Assembly (NCBI GenBank): GCA_965223795.1
Contig: CBDCXL010000002.1
Coordinates: 2,308,030-2,372,029, forward strand
Origin: Nitrospinales bacterium
Lineage (GTDB): Bacteria; Nitrospinota; Nitrospinia; Nitrospinales; VA-1
Reading direction: 5' to 3'
DNA length: 64,000 bases
Shown: positions 7,092 to 38,563 of the stretch, piece by piece
How positions within the stretch are numbered: the stretch's first letter is position 1
Layout: every line of letters starts with the position of its first letter
Made by a program: the position numbers and the translations under genes
Notes under the pieces: generated by a model
The model's input: the letters and a program-made list of their open reading frames with translations, nothing else
The model's database searches: none
Told to the model about the DNA's origin: nothing

Positions 7092-7754
7092 TTGGCATGT
7101 CCCGGCGGGGATTGGATGCGAGTCGGAAACCTCATTCAATGGATGCAAATGAAACTCGGGGGGCTGGTGTTTCCCCTGATGGAGCCGGTTTACCGAGGCA
7201 TGGAAAACCGCGATCCGACGGTCAAAAAGCATTTCAGCCAGGCGGTGCAAAGCCTGCAGCAAAAACGCACTCCTATCGCGCTGCTCAACCTCAACATGGT
7301 GTTGAGCATCAAACCCGACCATTTCCTCGCCCGGGTGTACCGGGGCCGGATCTACATCCGCGACGGCCGTTACCGCCTCGCCTCGGAAGATTTTCTGCAG
7401 GCCAACAAGATCAGCCATTTCCGCTTCACGCATTATGATCTGAGCCATGAGTATTTCAGTTCAGTCAAGAAGGAGTTCGGTGAACTGGGAGCCTCGATCT
7501 CGAAAAACTTCGACCAGATTTTCGAAGCGCTCAAATCGTCGAACCCGGAACGGGGAGGCGATCCTGACGGCATCGATCAGATCATGGACGCGCTGCCGCC
7601 TTTGGAAGAGGAGGGAAAATCGAACGCCGAGCTTTTGGAGTGCGAGACGATGGACCCATCCGAATCTCTTAAATTCAAGAATTTAGGCCCTATTACCCAG
7701 AATGAGATTGAAGAAACCGACTGGGACAAACTGATCAAGGAATTGACCTCTTAA
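7092..7754 (+). CDS. Hypothetical protein, TPR-like N-terminal half and acidic C-terminal half
   Basis: Track ORF. ALLNLNMVLSIKPDHFLARVYRGRIYIRDGRYRLASEDFLQA resembles a TPR helix pair. The start is uncertain (ATG at 7116, 7143 or 7179 are possible). Confidence 0.5.
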   Translation: MACPGGDWMRVGNLIQWMQMKLGGLVFPLMEPVYRGMENRDPTVKKHFSQAVQSLQQKRTPIALLNLNMVLSIKPDHFLARVYRGRIYIRDGRYRLASEDFLQANKISHFRFTHYDLSHEYFSSVKKEFGELGASISKNFDQIFEALKSSNPERGGDPDGIDQIMDALPPLEEEGKSNAELLECETMDPSESLKFKNLGPITQNEIEETDWDKLIKELTS

Positions 7755-30719: not shown

Positions 30720-31370
30720 TCAAACCCGGAACAGCCCCCAGATCCACAGCGCATAAAAAACAACGAATCCACCCGTGAGCGCCCAGCCGGGCCGGGGTTT
30801 CAAGGCGCCGCTTTTAGTCACAGCGAGGACAATGAACAACACGGCGCAGAGCACCCAACCGAAGAATCCCACTTCCGCCAGCACCGCCCAGCCGGGCCGC
30901 GGCGATCTTTCTTCGCTGAGCCGCGAGAGGTTCTGTGCCTTTCTCTGTTCGAAGGTCAGTTCCTGTTCAGACGGCGAGGAAGGCGGCGCCTTCGCCATCA
31001 GCGCCGCGATTTTTTCATTGCACTTTGCGATCCAGTGTTTGCCCGGCGTGAACACGCTGCGCGTCGAGTAGAAAGCGCTGCGCAACAGCCGGTAGGCATC
31101 CAGCGCCTGCTGCGGTTCGCCCGCGGCCTCATGGGCCTCGGCGATGCGCCACAGTCCTGCAGCGGCCCGGTCCGTGACGTCGAGACCGGGCAGGTACCAG
31201 TGGATGGCGCGTTCGTAGTGCGGCACCGCTTCGGCGTATTTTTTTTCACCGGCCAGTTGCTCGGCCAGCCGGAATTCGTCGTGGGCGCTGCTGTAAATTT
31301 TGATCACCGTGGTCACAAGCAGGATGCCGATGATGAGACCGATCCAGAGCGTTGCGTTTTTTGGGTTCAT
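30720..31370 (-). CDS. Membrane protein with TPR-like central region
   Basis: The product has an N-terminal transmembrane segment, a helical repeat (YAEAVPHYERAIHWY...EPQQALDAYRLL) and two C-terminal transmembrane segments. The start overlaps the upstream stop (ATGA). Confidence 0.6.
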   Translation of the reverse strand: MNPKNATLWIGLIIGILLVTTVIKIYSSAHDEFRLAEQLAGEKKYAEAVPHYERAIHWYLPGLDVTDRAAAGLWRIAEAHEAAGEPQQALDAYRLLRSAFYSTRSVFTPGKHWIAKCNEKIAALMAKAPPSSPSEQELTFEQRKAQNLSRLSEERSPRPGWAVLAEVGFFGWVLCAVLFIVLAVTKSGALKPRPGWALTGGFVVFYALWIWGLFRV

Positions 31371-32404
31371 GTCAGTTTGATGCGCTGTCCTTTATTCTGC
31401 GCGGAACGGTAAATGGAAAGGATGACGTTCAAGGCCCTGAGGCCGTCCTTGCCCGAGGAAGCGGGCGGTGTTCCCCTGCGGATGCTGGCGACCAGGTCGC
31501 GGGCGCCGCCGATGAAAGGACTGACGTCCTTTCGGGGGGCGGGAAACGGAACGGGTTTGAGTTCGGTGAAGCCGGTGAAGCGTTTGCTCTTTTTCGCGAG
31601 ATGCAGCTGCCGGCCGTCGTTGCCGATCATCAGACGACCTTCGGAGCCCTGGATGTCGAGCTCGAAATTGAAATAGTTGCGGGCGCCGCCGCCTTCGATG
31701 AATCCCATCGCCCCGCTTTTGAAACGGAGCAGGGCGCAGGCGGTCTCCTCGATGTGGTTTTTGCCGTGCGGCCAGACGGCGTGGCCGGACACCCAGTCGA
31801 TGGGTCCGCCAAAGTATAACAGAAGGTCGGTCAAATGGGTGCCGTCGTGAAACAGGGGACCGCCGCCGTGCACGTCGCGCGGCCGTTTGCCCGGCTTCCA
31901 GCTCAAGGCGTTGCCGACGATGGTGCGCACCTCGCCGATGCGGCCGCTTTGAATGAGGGCGCGCGCCTTGTTGTACCAGGGGTCGAATCGGCGTTCGTGG
32001 TTGACGCTCAGGACCACGTTGTTTTTCTCACAGACGCGGACCATTTTGCGGGCGTCTTTCAGGTTGTTGGCGATGGGTTTTTCGCAGTAGATGCCGCGCA
32101 CGCCCGAACGGGCCGCATCGAGAGTCAGGGCCGCGTGCAGGTGGGTCCAGGCGGCGACACAGACAATGTCGAGGTCTTCCTGCCGGAGCATTTCTTTGTG
32201 ATCGGTGTACAGGTTGGGCACGTTGAAGCGTTTGCCGAAGCGTTTGAGCCGCTCGGTGTCGATGTCGCAGGCGGCGGCGATGGCGACCGAGGGCAGGGCG
32301 GCAAAGCCGCCGGCATGGGTGCAGGGTTTGCCGCGCAGCGGATCGTCCTCCAGCAGCGCGCCGATTCTGCCGCAGCCGATCAGACCCAGTTTCAGTTTTT
32401 TCAT
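31367..32404 (-). CDS. Gfo/Idh/MocA-family NAD(P)-dependent oxidoreductase
   Basis: The Rossmann motif is LKLGLIGCGRIG and EKP is present (IYCEKPIA). This is the typical sugar/nucleotide-sugar dehydrogenase fold. Confidence 0.9.
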   Translation of the reverse strand: MKKLKLGLIGCGRIGALLEDDPLRGKPCTHAGGFAALPSVAIAAACDIDTERLKRFGKRFNVPNLYTDHKEMLRQEDLDIVCVAAWTHLHAALTLDAARSGVRGIYCEKPIANNLKDARKMVRVCEKNNVVLSVNHERRFDPWYNKARALIQSGRIGEVRTIVGNALSWKPGKRPRDVHGGGPLFHDGTHLTDLLLYFGGPIDWVSGHAVWPHGKNHIEETACALLRFKSGAMGFIEGGGARNYFNFELDIQGSEGRLMIGNDGRQLHLAKKSKRFTGFTELKPVPFPAPRKDVSPFIGGARDLVASIRRGTPPASSGKDGLRALNVILSIYRSAQNKGQRIKLT

Positions 32405-32608
32405 GCCGTGTCCAAAGATTTGAAGGGCGGTGGTGTGGGCGTGCCCTGGATGCTGCCGCTGGATTCTGTGACGGGACTTTGCCGGTCTGGAAGTGAAACG
32501 CGTTCGGAGGATTGAAACGATCCAGACTCCGGTGGTGGCAGGAGTATAACACTTCCCGTGCGCGGATGCGGAAAGGATTTTATCCCCGTTTCGGGCCGTT
32601 TCGGGTGC

Positions 32609-32644
32609 TGAAAAGAAAAGACACGCCCGCGGGCGGGCGTGTCT
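32609..32644 (-). terminator. Rho-independent terminator downstream of flagellin 1
   Basis: The 10-bp GC-rich stem AGACACGCCC/GGGCGTGTCT (32619-32644) is followed on the minus strand by TTTCTTTT. Confidence 0.65.
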
Positions 32645-32676
32645 TCGTTGTGTGCCTTGCGCTGGCGGGCGCCGCG

Positions 32677-33525
32677 TCAGAGAAGGGTCAGCACCGCCTG
32701 CGGCGTGAGATTGGACTGGCTCACCATGGCGGAACCGGCCTGCACCAGGATCTGGTTTTTGGTCAGCTCGGCGAGTTCCACCGCCAGGTCCGCGTCCTTG
32801 ATGGTGGTCAGGGCGTCGGTCAGCCCCTCGATCGTCACATTCAGGTTGTTCAGCGCCCGGGCGACCCGGTTCTGGGTGGCGCCGACCCGGCCGCGGATTT
32901 CGTTGAGAATGTCGATGGCGTCGGTCAGCGCGCCGAGAGCCTCAAACGCATCCGCCTGGGTGACGATGGTTTCATTGTCGATGCCCAGCGATTCGGCGGT
33001 CACCTCGGTGAGGTTGATCGCCTGATTGAGGTTGATGCGGCTGTCGGAGGTGGAGTCCAGCCCGACCTGAATCACGATGTTCTGCGATGCGCCGGCGGCG
33101 AGGGAACCGTCGATCAGTTTCTGGCCGTTGAACTCGGTGGTGTTGGCGATGCGGTCGAGCTCTTCGCGGAGCGCGTCGAATTCCAGCTGGATGGTCTCCC
33201 GCTCGGTGCGGCCGATGGTGCCGGTGGCCGCCTGGGATGCCAGCTCGCGCAGGCGGATGAGGATGCCCGCCTGCTCGCTCAAAGCGCCGTCCGCGCTGTT
33301 GATCAGCGCCTTGCCGTCGTTGAGGTTTTTCGCTCCCTGCTTGAGAGCCTGGACGTCGGAGGTCAATCCTTCGGAGATGGCGAGGCCGGCCGCATCGTCG
33401 GAACTTTTGGTGATGCGGATGCCGGACGCGATGCGGGAAATCGAACGGCCCAGCTGCGACCGGTTGGACTCGAGCGCCCGCTGCGAATTCAATGAGGATA
33501 CGTTGGTGAATATTTTGAGTGACAT
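32677..33525 (-). CDS. Flagellin (divergent paralogue, 282 aa)
   Basis: The conserved N-terminal D0/D1 region is NVSSLNSQRALESN...RIASGIRITKSSDDAAGLAISEGL and the C-terminal region is ELTKNQILVQAGSAMVSQSNLTPQAVLTLL. There is no large variable domain. Confidence 0.95.
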   Translation of the reverse strand: MSLKIFTNVSSLNSQRALESNRSQLGRSISRIASGIRITKSSDDAAGLAISEGLTSDVQALKQGAKNLNDGKALINSADGALSEQAGILIRLRELASQAATGTIGRTERETIQLEFDALREELDRIANTTEFNGQKLIDGSLAAGASQNIVIQVGLDSTSDSRINLNQAINLTEVTAESLGIDNETIVTQADAFEALGALTDAIDILNEIRGRVGATQNRVARALNNLNVTIEGLTDALTTIKDADLAVELAELTKNQILVQAGSAMVSQSNLTPQAVLTLL

Positions 33526-33610
33526 TCTTTTCCTCCCTGAAAAGATTCAAGCCACAATATTTTTTTATCCGATGAGCTTCTGCCGTGTGGTGTCCGGCGG
33601 ATTCTCCCGT

Positions 33611-34468
33611 TTACTGGAGCAGCTGCAGCACCGACTGCGGGATCAGGTTGGCCTGACCCACCATGGCCGTGGCCGCCTGCACCAGAATCTGGTTCCGGGT
33701 CAGAAGCGCGACTTCTTCCGCGATGTCGGCATCGCGGATGGCGGATTCCGCTGCGGACAGGTTTTCCACCGAAATCGACAGGTTGGCGATGGTGCGCACC
33801 AGCCGGTTCTGCACCGCGCCCACTTTACCGCGGCCCTGGGTGACGATGGAAATCGAGTTGTTCAGCAGGTCCAGCGCGGTCAGCGCGGCGCCGGCGGTGG
33901 TCACGCTCAACACGTCGATACCGAGGCTCGAGGCGGTGATGGCCTGCAGGTTGACCTCGGTGTTGAGGTTGATGCGGCTGTCGGTGGTCGCGTCGATGCC
34001 CACCTGGATCAGAATCTGATTGGTGAAGGCGACCGACGAGGCCAGCGAGCCGTCCACCAGTTTCTGGCCGTTGAACTCGGTGGTGGCGGCGATGCGGTCG
34101 ATTTCGGACCTGAGCGCGTCGAATTCCAGCTGAATGGTCTGCCGCTCGGTGGAACCGACGGTTCCGGTGGCGGCCTGGGAGGAGAGTTCGCGCAGACGGA
34201 TGAGAATACCCGACTGCTCGTTGAGCGCGCCTTCGGTGACGTTGATGAGGGAGATGCCGTCGTTGGCGTTGCGGATGGCCTGCCTGAGGGCGCGGATGTC
34301 CGAACGCAGCGCTTCGGAAATGGCGAGCCCGGCGGCGTCGTCGGCGCCGCGGTTGATGCGGATGCCGGACGCGATGCGCTCGACCGAGATGGCCAGCCTG
34401 TCGTTGTTGATGCCCAATATGCGCTGGGCATTGAGGGAGGGGATGTTGTTAAAGATTCTTATCGGCAT
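33611..34468 (-). CDS. Flagellin (285 aa, member of a near-identical trio)
   Basis: MPIRIFNNIPSLNAQRILGINNDRL...GADDAAGLAISEAL...LTRNQILVQAATAMVGQANLIPQSVLQLLQ supports the call. Confidence 0.95.
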   Translation of the reverse strand: MPIRIFNNIPSLNAQRILGINNDRLAISVERIASGIRINRGADDAAGLAISEALRSDIRALRQAIRNANDGISLINVTEGALNEQSGILIRLRELSSQAATGTVGSTERQTIQLEFDALRSEIDRIAATTEFNGQKLVDGSLASSVAFTNQILIQVGIDATTDSRINLNTEVNLQAITASSLGIDVLSVTTAGAALTALDLLNNSISIVTQGRGKVGAVQNRLVRTIANLSISVENLSAAESAIRDADIAEEVALLTRNQILVQAATAMVGQANLIPQSVLQLLQ

Positions 34469-34640
34469 GTGCCTAATCCTCCTTGATTATTGAAACAATC
34501 ACTTGCCTAGCCCCAGCTTCCTTGCTGGAGCCTGCCTGCTAATATCATCGGATGGGGTGTTTTTTTCGGGGCAACCTCCAAATGCAGATGGATGACGTGT
34601 TTCTTCCGGTCGTTTTGCAAGAGCAATGCAACTTTTGGTT

Positions 34641-34668
34641 GTATCGGGATTTTGAAAAATTACCTTTA
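34641..34668 (-). promoter_or_regulatory. Sigma-28 (FliA)-type promoter candidate for flagellin 33611..34468
   Basis: The minus strand reads TAAA-N16-CCCGATAC, against the consensus TAAA-N15-GCCGATAA. It lies ~170 nt upstream of the ATG. Confidence 0.5.
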
Positions 34669-34765
34669 AGGCTTTTTTCCCGGCTGGAACGGCGTCAGGG
34701 GAAGGGGAGGGCGGTGGGCGGTGCGGCGGTGCGGCGGCGCGCTGCAACGCGGCCGGTTGCGGGGA

Positions 34766-34796
34766 GCAAAAAAAAGCGCCTCCGGGGAGGAGGCGC
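34766..34796 (-). terminator. Rho-independent terminator downstream of flaG
   Basis: The hairpin GCGCCTCC-gggga-GGAGGCGC is flanked by an A8 run on the plus strand, which is a U-tract on the minus transcript. Confidence 0.65.
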
Positions 34797-34845
34797 TTTC
34801 GTTTTGCGTGTGCTTTCAAAGAGCACGCAAGAGCTTCAATAAAAC

Positions 34846-35175
34846 TTATGCGAACTCATTGAAGAAATCCCCTGGGGAGGGAGCGGGACGATTTTTCACC
34901 AGGGAAAAATCGTCCCGAGGAATCTGAACCACGATTTCCCCGGTTTTTGCGTTGATCACCTGGACGATCAATTCCTGAGAATCGTGATCTACCTGGAAAT
35001 CCACTTTCCGGTTCATCGTTCGTGTCAGATGGCCGTTTTCCTCCACCAGGATTTTATCCGGATGCGGCTTGCCGGAATCGGCCGAGCTGGATTCGTTTCC
35101 GGATGTTTTGAGACTCAAAGGCTTCTTAGGCGGAGGCCTAGGCACCGCCACATCCAGAGAAACTTTCAAAGACAT
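34846..35175 (-). CDS. flaG: FlaG-family flagellar protein
   Basis: ATG at 35175 sits behind GGAGGTGA. The C-terminal half, KVDFQVDHDSQELIVQVINAKTGEIVVQIPRDDF, matches the FlaG pattern. The gene starts 53 nt downstream of a flagellin stop. Confidence 0.75.
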   Translation of the reverse strand: MSLKVSLDVAVPRPPPKKPLSLKTSGNESSSADSGKPHPDKILVEENGHLTRTMNRKVDFQVDHDSQELIVQVINAKTGEIVVQIPRDDFSLVKNRPAPSPGDFFNEFA

Positions 35176-35228
35176 GCGGATCACCTCCAGAAACACTTTA
35201 AAATTTATAATCAGTTAAGGGGTATACC

Positions 35229-36086
35229 TTAACCTAAAAGCTGAAGTACGGACTGCGGCAGCAAGTTGGCCTGTCCGACCATGGATGTCGCCGACTGCAC
35301 CAGAATCTGGTTCCGGGTCAGGGTGGCGACTTCCTCCGCGATGTCGGCATCGCGGATGGCGGATTCTGCGGCCTGCAGGTTTTCCACCGTGATGGACAGA
35401 TTGCCGATGGTGCGCACCAGCCGGTTCTGCACCGCACCCACCGCGCCGCGGCCCGCCGTGACGATGGCGATGGCGGAGTTGATGGTGTCGAGCGCGGTCA
35501 ACGCGTTGCCGGCCGTGGTGACGCTCAGACCCTCGATACCGAGGCTGGTGGAGGTGATGGCCTGCAGGTTCACCTCGGTGTTCAGGTTGATGCGGCTGTC
35601 CGAGCTGCTGTCGATGCCGACCTGAATCAGGATCTGATTTGCAGAGGCGACCGAAGAAGAGAGCGAGCCGTCGACCAGTTTCTGGCCGTTGAACTCGGTG
35701 GTGGCCGCGATGCGGTCGATCTCATTCCTGAGAGCGGTGAACTCGAGCTGGATGGTGGCGCGCTCTGTGGAACCGACGGTACCGGTGGCGGCCTGGGAGG
35801 AAAGCTCCCGCAGACGGATGAGAATCCCCGACTGCTCGTTGAGCGCACCTTCGGTGACGTTGATCAGAGAGATGCCGTCGTTTGAGTTGCGGACGGCCTG
35901 CCTCAGTGCCCGGATGTCGGAGCGGAGTGCTTCTGAAATGGCGAGCCCGGCGGCGTCGTCGGCGCCGCGGTTGATGCGGATACCGGATGCGATCCGTTCT
36001 ACCGATTGCGCCAGGCGGTCGTTGTTGATGCCCAATATGCGCTGGGCATTGAGCGAAGGAATATTGTTGAAGATTCGAACTGGCAT
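35229..36086 (-). CDS. Flagellin (285 aa)
   Basis: MPVRIFNNIPSLNAQRILGINNDRLAQSVERIASGIRINRGADDAAGLAISEAL... supports the call. It aligns without gaps to ORFs 33611..34468 and 36709..37566. Confidence 0.95.
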   Translation of the reverse strand: MPVRIFNNIPSLNAQRILGINNDRLAQSVERIASGIRINRGADDAAGLAISEALRSDIRALRQAVRNSNDGISLINVTEGALNEQSGILIRLRELSSQAATGTVGSTERATIQLEFTALRNEIDRIAATTEFNGQKLVDGSLSSSVASANQILIQVGIDSSSDSRINLNTEVNLQAITSTSLGIEGLSVTTAGNALTALDTINSAIAIVTAGRGAVGAVQNRLVRTIGNLSITVENLQAAESAIRDADIAEEVATLTRNQILVQSATSMVGQANLLPQSVLQLLG

Positions 36087-36282
36087 TGCCTCATCCTCCT
36101 TGATGTATGATTGTCGTCAGGGTTATTGTTTTGGCCTCCATACCAAAACAAGCCTCCAAGCTTTAACCCTTGAGTGGAGAATCCCTTTCCCCACCCTGAA
36201 ACATTCGTTTCCGGTCACCTCCTTGATTTTAAAATTGTTATCAAAATTCCGCGAAATGCGGCACAACTTCCCTCAATCAGGC

Positions 36283-36309
36283 CTATCGGACGGAGCGAGA
36301 TGAACTTTA
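36283..36309 (-). promoter_or_regulatory. Sigma-28-type promoter candidate for flagellin 35229..36086
   Basis: The minus strand reads TAAAGTTC-N11-TCCGATAG (TAAA-N15-TCCGATAG). It lies ~195 nt upstream of the ATG. Confidence 0.6.
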
Positions 36310-36669
36310 ACGATTTGTCCGGGAAAAATGCTGCGGTGAAACTCGGAGGTACGGTGACAGACGGGGTGGGGAAGAAACAACGAGCGGTATTTTAGGGAAT
36401 TTCGCGGGGGACGGGAGGCTGAGAAAAAGCGGTGTGAAAAGGGACCCAGAAACGCCCGGCCTCTCCTAAGATCGCGCTTTGTGCGGGGAGAATGAGGGCG
36501 CTGGCTTGGGAAAAGGTTCGGGCCGCCCGGAACGGGCGCGGTTTCTGGGTCCCAACAAGGCTTCGCAGCGTGCGCGGGCCGTGCGTTGCGACCGGCCCGG
36601 ATTGCTGTCGTGCTGCGATATGTCTGAGGAGCGGGGGATTTGTGTGGCCATCATTTGAGATCGCCTCCA

Positions 36670-36698
36670 GGCCGGGACGCGGAATCGCGATCCCGGCC
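36670..36698 (-). terminator. GC-rich stem-loop immediately downstream of flagellin 36709..37566
   Basis: GGCCGGGA...TCCCGGCC contains an inner CGCG/CGCG pairing. There is no clear U-tract, so terminator function is uncertain. Confidence 0.4.
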
Positions 36699-36708
36699 TG
36701 AGAATGGA

Positions 36709-37566
36709 TCAGCCTAAGAGCTGAAGGACGGATTGCGGCAGCAGGTTCGCCTGTCCCACCGCGGAGGTTGCGGTCTGCACCAGGATCTGGTTCCGTGTCA
36801 GCGTGGCCACTTCTTCGGCAATGTCGGCGTCGCGGATGGCGGATTCTGCGGCCTGCAGGTTTTCCACGGAAATCGACAGGTTGCCGATGGTGCGCACCAG
36901 CCGGTTCTGCACCGCACCGATGGCGCCGCGGGAGGCGGTGACCGAAGCGATGGCGGTGTTGATGGTGTCGAGTGCGGTCAGCGCGTTGCCGGCGGTGGTG
37001 ACGCTGAGTGAGTCGATCGACAGCGTCGTGGAAGTGACGGCGGTCAGGTTCACCTCGGTGTTGAGGTTGATGCGGCTGTCGGCGGAGCTGTCGATGCCGA
37101 CCTGAATGAGGATCTGGTTCGCGGAGGTGACCGAGGACGCCAGCGAGCCGTCGACCAGTTTCTGGCCGTTGAACTCGGTGGTCGCCGCGATGCGGTCGAT
37201 TTCGTTTCTGAGCGCCGAGAACTCAAGCTGAATGGTGGCGCGCTCGGTGGAGCCGACGGTTCCCGTGGCTGCCTGGGAAGCGAGTTCCCGCAGGCGGATG
37301 AGGATGCCGGACTGCTCGTTCAAGGCACCTTCCGCTACGTTGATGAGCGAGATGCCGTCGTTTGAGTTACGGACGGCCTGCCTCAGTGCCCGGATGTCGG
37401 AGCGGAGTGCTTCTGAAATGGCGAGCCCGGCGGCGTCGTCGGCGCCGCGGTTGATGCGGATACCGGATGCGATCCGTTCCACCGATTGCGCTAGGCGGTC
37501 GTTGTTGATGCCCAGGATACGCTGGGCATTGAGTGAAGCGATGTTGTTGAAAATTCGTATTGGCAT
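36709..37566 (-). CDS. Flagellin (285 aa)
   Basis: MPIRIFNNIASLNAQRILGINNDRLAQSVERIASGIRINRGADDAAGLAISEAL...QANLLPQSVLQLLG supports the call. Confidence 0.95.
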   Translation of the reverse strand: MPIRIFNNIASLNAQRILGINNDRLAQSVERIASGIRINRGADDAAGLAISEALRSDIRALRQAVRNSNDGISLINVAEGALNEQSGILIRLRELASQAATGTVGSTERATIQLEFSALRNEIDRIAATTEFNGQKLVDGSLASSVTSANQILIQVGIDSSADSRINLNTEVNLTAVTSTTLSIDSLSVTTAGNALTALDTINTAIASVTASRGAIGAVQNRLVRTIGNLSISVENLQAAESAIRDADIAEEVATLTRNQILVQTATSAVGQANLLPQSVLQLLG

Positions 37567-37773
37567 CCCCTAATCCTCCACCAAGAGTTGGAAACGTGTT
37601 TACAATCTGTTTTATTAAAAGGTGTTGCGTGCCCCCGAGGTCTTTGTTTATCGTGGCCGGCCTCAGAATCCACGCAAAATTCCTTAAGCTTTAATTTCAA
37701 TCTGCCGTTCTGGTAAATAAGTTGGGTTATTGGGAAACCCTTGAATTTCAAAAACTTCCCAACTCAATTTTGC

Positions 37774-37800
37774 TTATCGGCAGCCGGAATTAGAACTTTA
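37774..37800 (-). promoter_or_regulatory. Sigma-28-type promoter for flagellin 36709..37566
   Basis: The minus strand reads TAAAGTTC-TAATTCCGGCT-GCCGATAA. This is an exact TAAA-N15-GCCGATAA, ~205 nt upstream of the ATG. Confidence 0.75.
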
Positions 37801-37825
37801 ATGTAAATCTAAGATTTTGTTGATA

Positions 37826-38563
37826 TTAGCGCCGCCAGTCTTTTTGCGCGACATGGGCGTTGCATTTCGCCAGCTCGGGATGGGCGTTGAGATAAGCGAG
37901 AACCTGCTCCAAATTGACGGTTTCGCCGGCGGGGTGGAAGAAACGCTCATGGATTGTTTGCATGAGGGTGACGTCTTCCTGCGTGTCCACGGTCAGTCGA
38001 AACGGCTGGTCCTTCAGATAAAGCGGAGCCGGCAGGTGGGCGATGCGGAAGGCATCGGGATGGTCCCTGAAATAGGTGGTGACGTGTTCCCGGTGCGCGG
38101 GAAGCGTCGTGCTTGCGGCGATCCGCTGCAACGCGGCAAGCCGGACGACCTCGGTGCCGGTGCCCAGAGGGATCGCATCGGGAGTGACGGTGTGATCGGC
38201 GTTGCTTTTAATATGCAGGTTTAACAGGGATTGCAGGAGGTTTATGTCGAACAGGGGATTGTCGCCGCAGACGCGGACCACATGCCCGGCGTTTACCGAT
38301 TGTGCCGCCATCAGGAAACGCGCCAGCACATCCTCCTCCGGACCCTGGATGAAACCGATGTCATATTTTTTTGCGGTTTTGGCGAGCGGTTTGTCCTTCG
38401 CCCCCTCGGGCGCGGCGAGGACGATGGCGCCGATCCCGTTCACCCGCTTGAGGCGTTTGATGATATGCTCGATCAGCGGCACGCCCGCCAGCGGCAGCAT
38501 CACTTTTCCCGGATAGCGGGTGGAGCCCATTCTGGCCTGGATGACGGCGGCGGTTCGGGTCAT
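37826..38563 (-). CDS. SpsF/NeuA-like cytidylyltransferase family protein (CTP_transf_3)
   Basis: The N-terminus AAVIQARMGSTRYPGKVMLPLAGVPLIEHIIKRL is typical of acylneuraminate-type cytidylyltransferase / SpsF proteins. Confidence 0.85.
   Translation of the reverse strand: MTRTAAVIQARMGSTRYPGKVMLPLAGVPLIEHIIKRLKRVNGIGAIVLAAPEGAKDKPLAKTAKKYDIGFIQGPEEDVLARFLMAAQSVNAGHVVRVCGDNPLFDINLLQSLLNLHIKSNADHTVTPDAIPLGTGTEVVRLAALQRIAASTTLPAHREHVTTYFRDHPDAFRIAHLPAPLYLKDQPFRLTVDTQEDVTLMQTIHERFFHPAGETVNLEQVLAYLNAHPELAKCNAHVAQKDWRR

Follow-up and report, generated by a model that had tools for sequence, protein, structure and literature searches.

Tandem flagellin paralogues with late expression of the σ28 class are found in Caulobacter crescentus (six flagellins of ~273-276 amino acids (aa)), Bdellovibrio and Vibrio, and in loci of this type small accessory genes of the flagellum, flaG among them, lie between or beside the flagellin genes. 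In Caulobacter, FlbT and FlaF act on the flagellin leaders, and in Campylobacter jejuni the tandem flaA/flaB copies undergo gene conversion. In Bacillus, Campylobacter, Borrelia and Clostridioides, CsrA is an established regulator that acts on flagellin leaders: in C. jejuni flaA, CsrA binds two stem-loops with ANGGA hexaloops, the second of which covers the ribosome-binding site (PMC4894983), and in Bacillus subtilis there is a FliW-CsrA-Hag homeostasis (PMC6529632; PMC8306008). About 45% of flagellated bacteria carry more than one flagellin gene, with six in Caulobacter, six in V. vulnificus and seven in R. leguminosarum (PMC8306008). In the present study we analyzed a 64,000-nucleotide (nt) stretch of DNA from a Nitrospinales bacterium (contig CBDCXL010000002.1 of assembly GCA_965223795.1, positions 2,308,030 to 2,372,029; hereafter the window), which carries four short flagellin genes and a flaG gene on its minus strand. 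The tandem multi-flagellin arrangement is itself commonplace; what is new is the set of position-specific structured leaders, the contrast between coding regions and leaders, and a pseudoknot that lies outside the curated RNA families. Literature searches on Nitrospina in combination with flagellin or with CsrA returned no account of the array or of its leaders. We read the locus, with a probability of roughly 0.68, as one that specifies a multi-flagellin filament with translational control of each copy, and the structural part of this reading, that is the genes, units and leaders, is near-certain.

All four flagellin open reading frames (ORFs) were confirmed with the positions, strand and lengths originally predicted. 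In the direction of transcription the array begins with flagellin D (36709..37566, 285 aa), followed by flagellin C (35229..36086, 285 aa), flaG, flagellin B (33611..34468, 285 aa) and flagellin A (32677..33525, 282 aa), the last of which starts 85 nt after B. The placement of flaG behind the second gene of the array was thus correctly predicted. All four flagellins score above the Pfam gathering cutoffs for both terminal domains, with 123.5-140.5 bits for Flagellin_N (PF00669; cutoff 26.6) and 76-85.8 bits for Flagellin_C (PF00700; cutoff 23), flagellin D reaching 140.5 and 85.3 bits, respectively. Residues 4-284 of flagellin D, the only copy so queried, align with residues 2-303 of B. subtilis Hag (5WJT) with E = 1e-55, and it is also collinear with several other filament-forming flagellins of solved structure (270-286 aa); all four copies belong to the D0/D1-only type. 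The short length is shared with the flagellins of Caulobacter and Bdellovibrio, and the Bdellovibrionota and Myxococcota relatives that we fetched likewise possess 2-4 tandem short flagellins. Antisense ORFs of up to 469 aa opposite the flagellins (33077-34486 and 32512-33495, plus strand) were rejected as by-products of the coding-strand G+C content at third codon positions of 0.81-0.88.

Flagellins B, C and D align without gaps over their full length, as had been noted. Their description as three near-identical copies goes too far, as the identity among them is 85.6-92.6% in protein and 80.0-86.5% in DNA, with 72-82 synonymous codon differences per pair, a synonymous divergence (dS) of 0.49-0.66 and a longest exact repeat between any two copies of only 110 nt. 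As had been anticipated, the differences lie mainly in the central ~100 residues: positions 141-240 hold 62-67% of the differing residues, and it is this segment in which Ser and Thr together make up 22-28% of the residues, as against 12-14% elsewhere. Flagellin A was rightly set apart as the more divergent copy, being 58.5-60.3% identical to the other three in protein, and the fraction of Ser and Thr in its center is 0.16, compared with 0.22-0.28 in B, C and D.

The flaG gene has a longest ORF of 116 aa (34846..35196, minus strand), and translation probably begins at the ATG at 35175, in front of which stands a GGAGGTG ribosome-binding site. Its product is recognized by the Pfam FlaG profile with 36.1 bits (cutoff 23.8), and the NCBIfam FlaG equivalogs score it at 31.9 and 21.4 bits, far below their cutoffs of 154 and 107; hence, we consider it a divergent member of the FlaG family (PF03646). 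Downstream of flaG there is a terminator and then flagellin B, so that this flaG does not head the usual flaG-fliD-fliS operon, and a Pfam scan of ~60 ORFs across it found neither FliD nor FliS nor any other flagellar protein, in agreement with what had been noted earlier. Between C and flaG, a 7-bp hairpin (GUUAAGG-UAUACC-CCUUAAC; 35214-35233, minus strand) covers part of the C stop codon, and an A/U-rich stretch separates it from flaG. This hairpin could attenuate read-through, which would yield less FlaG than flagellin.

The σ28 (FliA) promoter has the consensus TAAA-N15-GCCGATAA, and three of the four flagellin genes are preceded by a motif of this type. That of D (TAAAGTTC-N11-GCCGATAA; 37774..37800) matches the -10 element at 8/8 positions, whereas those of C-flaG (TAAAGTTC-N11-TCCGATAG; 36283..36309) and B-A (TAAAGGTA...TCCCGATAC; 34641..34668, with a 16-nt spacer) match it at 6/8. 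These motifs, all on the minus strand, stand 207, 196 and 172 nt upstream of the start codons of D, C and B, respectively. A search of the entire window with TAAAG-N14-16-CCGATA returned 3 matches against 0.01 expected, all of them on the minus strand and upstream of flagellins, and in the relatives described below the motif was found at the matching distance before 70 major-type flagellin genes. It was never found before A-type genes or extra divergent paralogues in any genome scanned, the window included, and a scan of 32300-38000 for σ70 promoters returned none. The locus can be compared with the Campylobacter/Helicobacter and Shewanella flaA-flaB systems, where major flagellins likewise stand next to a divergent and differently regulated paralogue. 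In those systems, however, the minor flagellin has a σ54 promoter of its own (PMC8306008), whereas flagellin A has no promoter motif and is apparently co-transcribed with B. A candidate σ54 promoter for A (TGGC-N..-TTTT in the B-A spacer) was rejected on inspection by eye, as it lacks the -12 GC element.

Terminators complete this picture. A strong intrinsic terminator with a 12-bp GC-rich stem and a run of eight T residues (34768..34800) follows flaG, and another with a 13-bp stem (32611..32646) follows A, both being detected by the terminator scan on the minus strand. Behind D, the minimum free energy fold points to a probable terminator in the form of a long hairpin, GGGACCCAGAAAC...GTTTCTGGGTCCC, followed by TTTTC (36436..36553, minus strand), within which the terminator scan has a weak match (36459-36446). 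The block of this hairpin is 78-80% conserved relative to the closest relative (locus L001), as compared to 38-66% for the flanking spacer. Given the promoter motifs before D, C and B, the terminators after flaG and A and the probable one after D, we define three σ28-type transcription units, namely D, C-flaG and B-A. No inverted repeats flanking any of the promoters were found, and no invertible switch is suggested.

Relatives of the locus were collected by scanning one genome per species, and synteny was established by tblastn with the flagellins and their neighbors. The locus is present in Nitrospinota, both in Nitrospinaceae and in metagenome-assembled genomes of Nitrospinales, the window itself being from a marine, nitrite-oxidizing and Nitrospinaceae-related member of the phylum, and ~30 loci share the order hisA-hisF-LD-carboxypeptidase-cytidylyltransferase-[flagellin array]-GFO/IDH/MocA oxidoreductase-(TPR protein)-ABC transporter. 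The immediate neighbors of the array are, with few exceptions among the Nitrospinota loci, a CTP_transf_3 cytidylyltransferase on the upstream side (window 37826-38563, minus strand) and a GFO/IDH/MocA oxidoreductase on the downstream side (window 31367-32404, minus strand). Unlike the loci of Caulobacter, Bdellovibrio and Vibrio, the array is isolated from other flagellar genes between these two, with his genes beyond the cytidylyltransferase; further differences are that its flaG has no fliD or fliS after it and that long structured leaders (170-210 nt) precede all three units. A profile census gave 3-7 flagellin ORFs per array, nearly all of exactly 285 aa. The closest relative likewise has the order D-C-flaG-B-A, on a 3.37-Mb contig, with amino acid identities to the window of 96% for D, 99% for C, 70% for flaG, 98% for B and 88% for A, and four-gene arrays are also seen on 4.0- and 4.2-Mb contigs of other relatives.

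In at least 10 genomes, FlaG profile searches located a flaG gene behind the antepenultimate flagellin, and given this recurrence in the same array position, the embedded flaG is the normal layout of the phylum. A flaG that is embedded in this way and lacks fliD and fliS behind it is therefore not anomalous. A second flaG after the last, A-type flagellin was found in at least 11 genomes (loci L004, L006, L008, L009, L016, L019, L021, L022, L028, L029 and L032); it is not in the window, and where these relatives have it, the window and its closest relative have a 270-295-bp spacer with a terminator. This second flaG was either lost or never present in the lineage of the window and its closest relative.

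Assemblers can in principle misjoin or expand tandem repeats of ~860 bp, and the array could conceivably be an artefact of this kind; alternatively, its copies might be silent cassettes that serve phase or antigenic variation. Both ideas are effectively refuted. The copies differ at 13-20% of their nucleotides, no stretch of more than 110 bases is identical between them, their spacers are unique, and the same order recurs on the 3.37-Mb contig of the closest relative, with the locus in ~30 other genomes; given the long contigs, the divergence and the unique spacers, an assembly artefact is excluded. As for silent cassettes, every copy has a start codon with a Shine-Dalgarno (SD) sequence, three have promoters, and none of these is flanked by the inverted repeats of a switch.

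Some relatives have flagellin-like genes of types that the window lacks. A very divergent, promoterless paralogue of ~240 aa, scoring 79-94 bits with the flagellin profile, occupies position 2 in L005, L008, L009, L013, L015 and L024. Another promoterless clade, 52-64% identical to B-D, is found at position 2 or 3 in L005, L006, L008, L013, L017 and L025. On the complete Nitrospinaceae chromosome OZ250172 (L037, 11140-12456), the second flagellin ORF is 438 aa long and has its tblastn match in two pieces, which points either to an insertion in the variable region or to a fusion or frameshift.

A neighbor-joining tree of 127 flagellins revealed how the copies are related. The A type forms one ancient clade and is always in the last position, the B type (the penultimate gene) forms an orthologous clade among the nearer relatives, and C and D are sisters within the lineage of the window and its closest relative. 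Relative to the orthologues in the latter, the ratio of nonsynonymous to synonymous divergence (dN/dS) amounts to 0.083 (D), 0.015 (C) and 0.032 (B), with dS values of 0.39-0.46, and to judge from these sequences B, C and D are each under strong purifying selection with no decay. The dN/dS estimates cover B, C and D; A, for its part, is intact, 88% identical in amino acids to its orthologue and a member of a phylum-wide clade. All four genes appear functional, and the absence of inactivating changes, remarked on in the original prediction, is borne out.

The same prediction had regarded the repeats as substrates for gene conversion or recombination. This is supported for one short tract: C and D are exactly identical over 110 nt (gene nt 88-197; C 35890..35999, D 37370-37479, minus strand), where the longest run of concordant polymorphic sites is 13 (Sawyer-type permutation p = 0.0018). 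Within this tract the identity between D and C is 0.98, versus 0.82 between D and its orthologue and 0.85 between C and its orthologue, and that the paralogues are here closer to each other than to the orthologues indicates a conversion after the split from the closest relative. The latter has an 86-nt identical run of its own at the corresponding place. Outside the short tract the copies are poor substrates for recombination. On a larger scale, the identity between D and C within the genome is 0.93, as opposed to only 0.82-0.87 to their positional orthologues in L002. Given that the coding sequences of D and C are homogenized, yet their leaders are anciently distinct, concerted evolution is restricted to the coding sequence.

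The leaders of B, C and D do not repeat one another, and they fall into three families that track array position. The first gene has a leader of family L1 (17 genomes), the gene before flaG one of family L2 (16 genomes) and the penultimate gene one of family L3 (16 genomes). The trinucleotide GGA occurs 6.3 times per leader, against 3.2 times in shuffled controls. The B-type leader (L3; 34469..34640, minus strand, ~170 nt) contains two hairpins: CUCCAGC-AAGGAA-GCUGGGG (34511-34530; consensus CAGC-A(A/G)GGAN-GCUG) and, at the SD, AUC-AAGGAGG-AU (34472-34490; consensus AUC-ANGGAGG-AU). The GGA is invariant in both hairpin loops. Across the family 93.8% of the alignment cells are paired and 6 pairs are changed on both sides, compared with 2.2 in shuffles, and the covariation score was reached in 0/500 of the latter; RNAalifold independently predicts both helices.

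The C-type leader (L2; 36087..36282, minus strand, ~190 nt) has five GGA sites in a more elaborate RNAalifold structure. A site AUCAAGGAGGUG (36216-36227) is followed by the hairpin P1 with the loop AAGGGAU (36173-36195), then by a multibranch element in which P2 encloses CUUGGAGGC and the hairpin P3 has the loop UAUGGAGG (36120-36169), and finally by an SD hairpin (36089-36104). Here 96.4% of cells are paired and 12 pairs are changed on both sides, against 4.5 in shuffles (0/500), and positions 36121-36170 are 100% identical to the closest relative, despite a synonymous divergence of ~0.4. A 13-codon upstream ORF in the C leader of the window was dismissed, as it is not conserved in relatives. 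In the spacer between B and A, which has a median length of 106 nt, most relatives possess a GC-AAGGAU-GC hairpin and a GGA-containing SD. Thus, the layout typical of CsrA targets, with at least two GGA motifs of which one is at the SD and one in a hairpin loop, is seen in the leaders of B and C and, among relatives, in the A spacers; the only conserved GGA of the D leader is at its SD site. Taken together, there are three position-specific structured leaders across the phylum, supported by covariation. Against Rfam 15, the only match in the window at gathering scores was a tRNA, and when thresholds were relaxed, neither the locus nor two D leaders had matches above chance level.

A GGA in a hairpin hexaloop combined with a GGA at the SD is the arrangement of the σ28/σD-dependent B. 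subtilis hag and C. jejuni flaA genes, and it recurs in the leaders of B and C and in most A-type spacers. There are also differences: the Nitrospinota leaders are 4-5 times longer than the 45-nt leader of C. jejuni flaA, and the C leader, with its five GGA sites in a multibranch fold, resembles a CsrA sponge more than it does flaA or hag. An alternative to CsrA binding is that these GGA-rich hairpins are SD-like sites which recruit or park the 30S subunit, or elements that protect the 5' ends of the long leaders from decay. It draws on several full SD matches (AAGGAGGU) that lie far from any start codon, and on the fact that neither the window nor the fetched Nitrospinota loci contain CsrA or FliW genes. 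However, G-C pairs close the hexaloops in which the conserved core, (A/N)GGA, is displayed, and the second GGA is at the true SD; this two-site geometry matches that defined for CsrA on flaA and hag (PMC4894983), and the B-type hairpin loop AAGGAU would make a poor SD. We accordingly regard the SD-like interpretation as improbable, and we marginally favor, by analogy with flaA and hag, a CsrA-type control of the cistrons.

The D-type leader (L1; 37567..37773, minus strand, ~200 nt) differs from the other two. Its SD block is invariant (CCAACTCTTGGTGGAGGATTAGGGG, 37567-37591; conserved sequence CCAACUCWUGGUGGAGGAUUAGGG), and a metagenome scan with this block added 120 contig stretches to the sample. 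Further upstream there is a candidate H-type pseudoknot of ~50 nt (37627-37675, minus strand) with two crossing helices, S1 and S2. S1 is formed by GGUGG and CCACC, and its loop segment CUGARGG is complementary to CCUYCAG, which lies downstream of an A-rich linker and is followed by GGGGCAGCAG. The element is present in 83 of the 123 D-type leaders, as 60 unique variants, and in 3.77 Mb of collected sequence the pattern has 83 matches, every one of them in the leader of a first flagellin. MAFFT placed the 5' strand of S2 out of register, so that column-wise counting of pairs is invalid for this leader, and the crossing helices were evaluated by a duplex permutation test. In this test the S2 loop has an energy of -5.95 kcal/mol with its own partner versus -4.38 (sd 0.19) with permuted partners re-optimized alike (0/300), and the closing pair of S1 is A-U in 26, G-C in 23 and C-G in 2 variants. 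Two first-flagellin leaders, those of L009 (about 7130-7250) and L013, have the pseudoknot duplicated head to tail, and a tandem arrangement is known for some riboswitch classes.

The H-type topology, the S1 of 5-6 bp, the A-rich linker, the size of ~50 nt and the location in a 5' untranslated region are all shared with the SAM-II/SAM-V, preQ1 and guanidine-III riboswitches. Unlike in those riboswitches, the D-leader element lies ~40-85 nt upstream of the SD block and does not overlap it, and the gene context suggests no ligand. A match of SAM-II to the D leader was attributed to chance, its score being 12.7 bits (gathering cutoff 36; E = 1.8) and in one relative only. The pseudoknot is specific to the first-flagellin leaders of Nitrospinota and matches no Rfam family. 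We only tentatively entertain the further idea that it represents an undescribed class of cis-regulatory RNA, either a riboswitch or a protein-binding element, which times the onset of the filament in Nitrospinota and, together with both multi-GGA leaders, gives a three-channel post-transcriptional control of filament composition.

We now consider how the locus might operate as a whole. As three of the four genes have their own σ28-type promoter, a filament built from several flagellins, or chosen among them, is plausible. To this extent the prediction of a multi-flagellin or alternative filament stands, the genes being intact; nothing in the data demonstrates a complex filament of the Rhizobium kind. 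In the scenario that we favor, the flagellins would be made together, late in assembly, and would co-polymerize into one filament of D0/D1-only subunits, in which B, C and D would be the major subunits with slightly different surface-exposed central segments. Such co-assembly is likely. A CsrA-type regulator that binds GGA would gate translation of each cistron through the GGA hairpin loop and the GGA-containing SD, with FliW as the expected partner of CsrA that senses cytoplasmic flagellin. The D leader may add a separate control through its H-type pseudoknot or substitute it for that of CsrA. FlaG would be made in smaller amounts from the C transcript and would modulate filament length, as in other bacteria.

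Flagellin A, translated from the B-A transcript, would be an anciently specialized minor subunit in this scenario. A stronger form of this idea, which is compatible with a co-assembled filament, holds that A is not a bulk subunit at all, and that it instead makes up a hook- or tip-proximal segment or has a regulatory role. It forms its own ancient clade, closes the array in every case, lacks a promoter motif throughout, and is ~60% identical to the others without their central enrichment in Ser and Thr (0.16 vs 0.22-0.28). Nevertheless, it retains the full Flagellin_N and Flagellin_C domains at normal scores and a similar length, with no mark of a non-polymerizing protein in its sequence, and we consider this stronger form a possibility of lesser weight.

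The three leaders could alternatively be condition-specific switches that choose the copy to be translated, so that one or two flagellins make up the filament under a given condition. That three anciently distinct leaders precede otherwise similar genes would fit such alternative filaments, as would the restriction of the pseudoknot to the D leader and the concentration of protein differences in the central 100 residues, which are probably surface-exposed. However, a single class of σ28-type promoter is common to all three units, the copies are equally constrained, and co-assembly is the usual outcome in the multi-flagellin bacteria studied (PMC8306008). We therefore believe that alternative filaments are unlikely.

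Several observations weigh against a co-assembled filament with translational control of each copy. Genes for csrA, fliW, fliA, fliD and fliS are found neither in the window nor in the fetched Nitrospinota loci, and no flagella have ever been observed on Nitrospina in culture (PMC5029188). The GGAGG-like motifs of the leaders could be SD-like stabilizer or standby sites. In the window, the GGA hairpin that most relatives have upstream of the A cistron is degenerate. Furthermore, the covariation statistics of the leaders ignore phylogeny, and the D pseudoknot was judged by a custom duplex test, MAFFT having misregistered its helix.

Beyond the conserved array, certain relatives have a solitary flagellin-like gene elsewhere (L043 10001-11179, L033 6377-7567 and L041 10001-10831, where the stretch ends inside the flagellin match), with 50-60% identity to D. 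In L043 this flagellin has a degenerate N-terminal motif, and the next ORF, in both L043 and L033, has ~103 aa and, as judged by eye, resembles FlgM (…VDRVSLS…). Such a pair might combine a flagellin of regulatory function with an anti-σ28 module. No fliD, fliS, csrA or fliW was found at the Nitrospinota loci with distant flagellins (L043, L041, L033, L032 and L056), which have the solitary flagellin-like gene only, and among the fetched loci a CsrA-like ORF was seen only in one from Bdellovibrionales.

With regard to the neighborhood, the Ser/Thr-rich centers of the flagellins and the flanking cytidylyltransferase could hint at flagellin glycosylation. A flagellin-glycosylation island was considered and set aside, given that the cytidylyltransferase falls below every NCBIfam equivalog cutoff for PseF, NeuA and KdsB, and that the window contains no Maf, PseI or NeuB-like gene. 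At a greater distance, a tRNA-Lys(CTT) gene is located at 48056-48131 on the plus strand, beyond which (48.2-64 kb) the G+C content drops from ~57-62% to 44-53%. This region has a fragment of a transposase-like helix-turn-helix protein (49136-49393) and genes for methylmalonyl-CoA mutase/MeaB, the methylcitrate cycle (PrpD, PrpB-like and citrate synthase-like), an acyl-CoA dehydrogenase, a thiolase and a 2-oxoacid:ferredoxin oxidoreductase. Possibly, it is a genomic island that entered at this tRNA gene.

The locus supplies three candidate structured leader RNAs and is a natural case in which homogenized coding regions are combined with distinct regulatory leaders. Nitrospinota are the main nitrite oxidizers of the ocean. 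The core genome of Nitrospina-like bacteria includes flagellar genes, and cultured members have never been seen swimming (PMC5029188). The conserved gene order, the strong constraint on the copies, and the promoters with their elaborate leaders argue that motility is used in nature and that production of the filament is tightly regulated. Such natural motility would bear on how Nitrospinota find nitrite and low-oxygen microniches.

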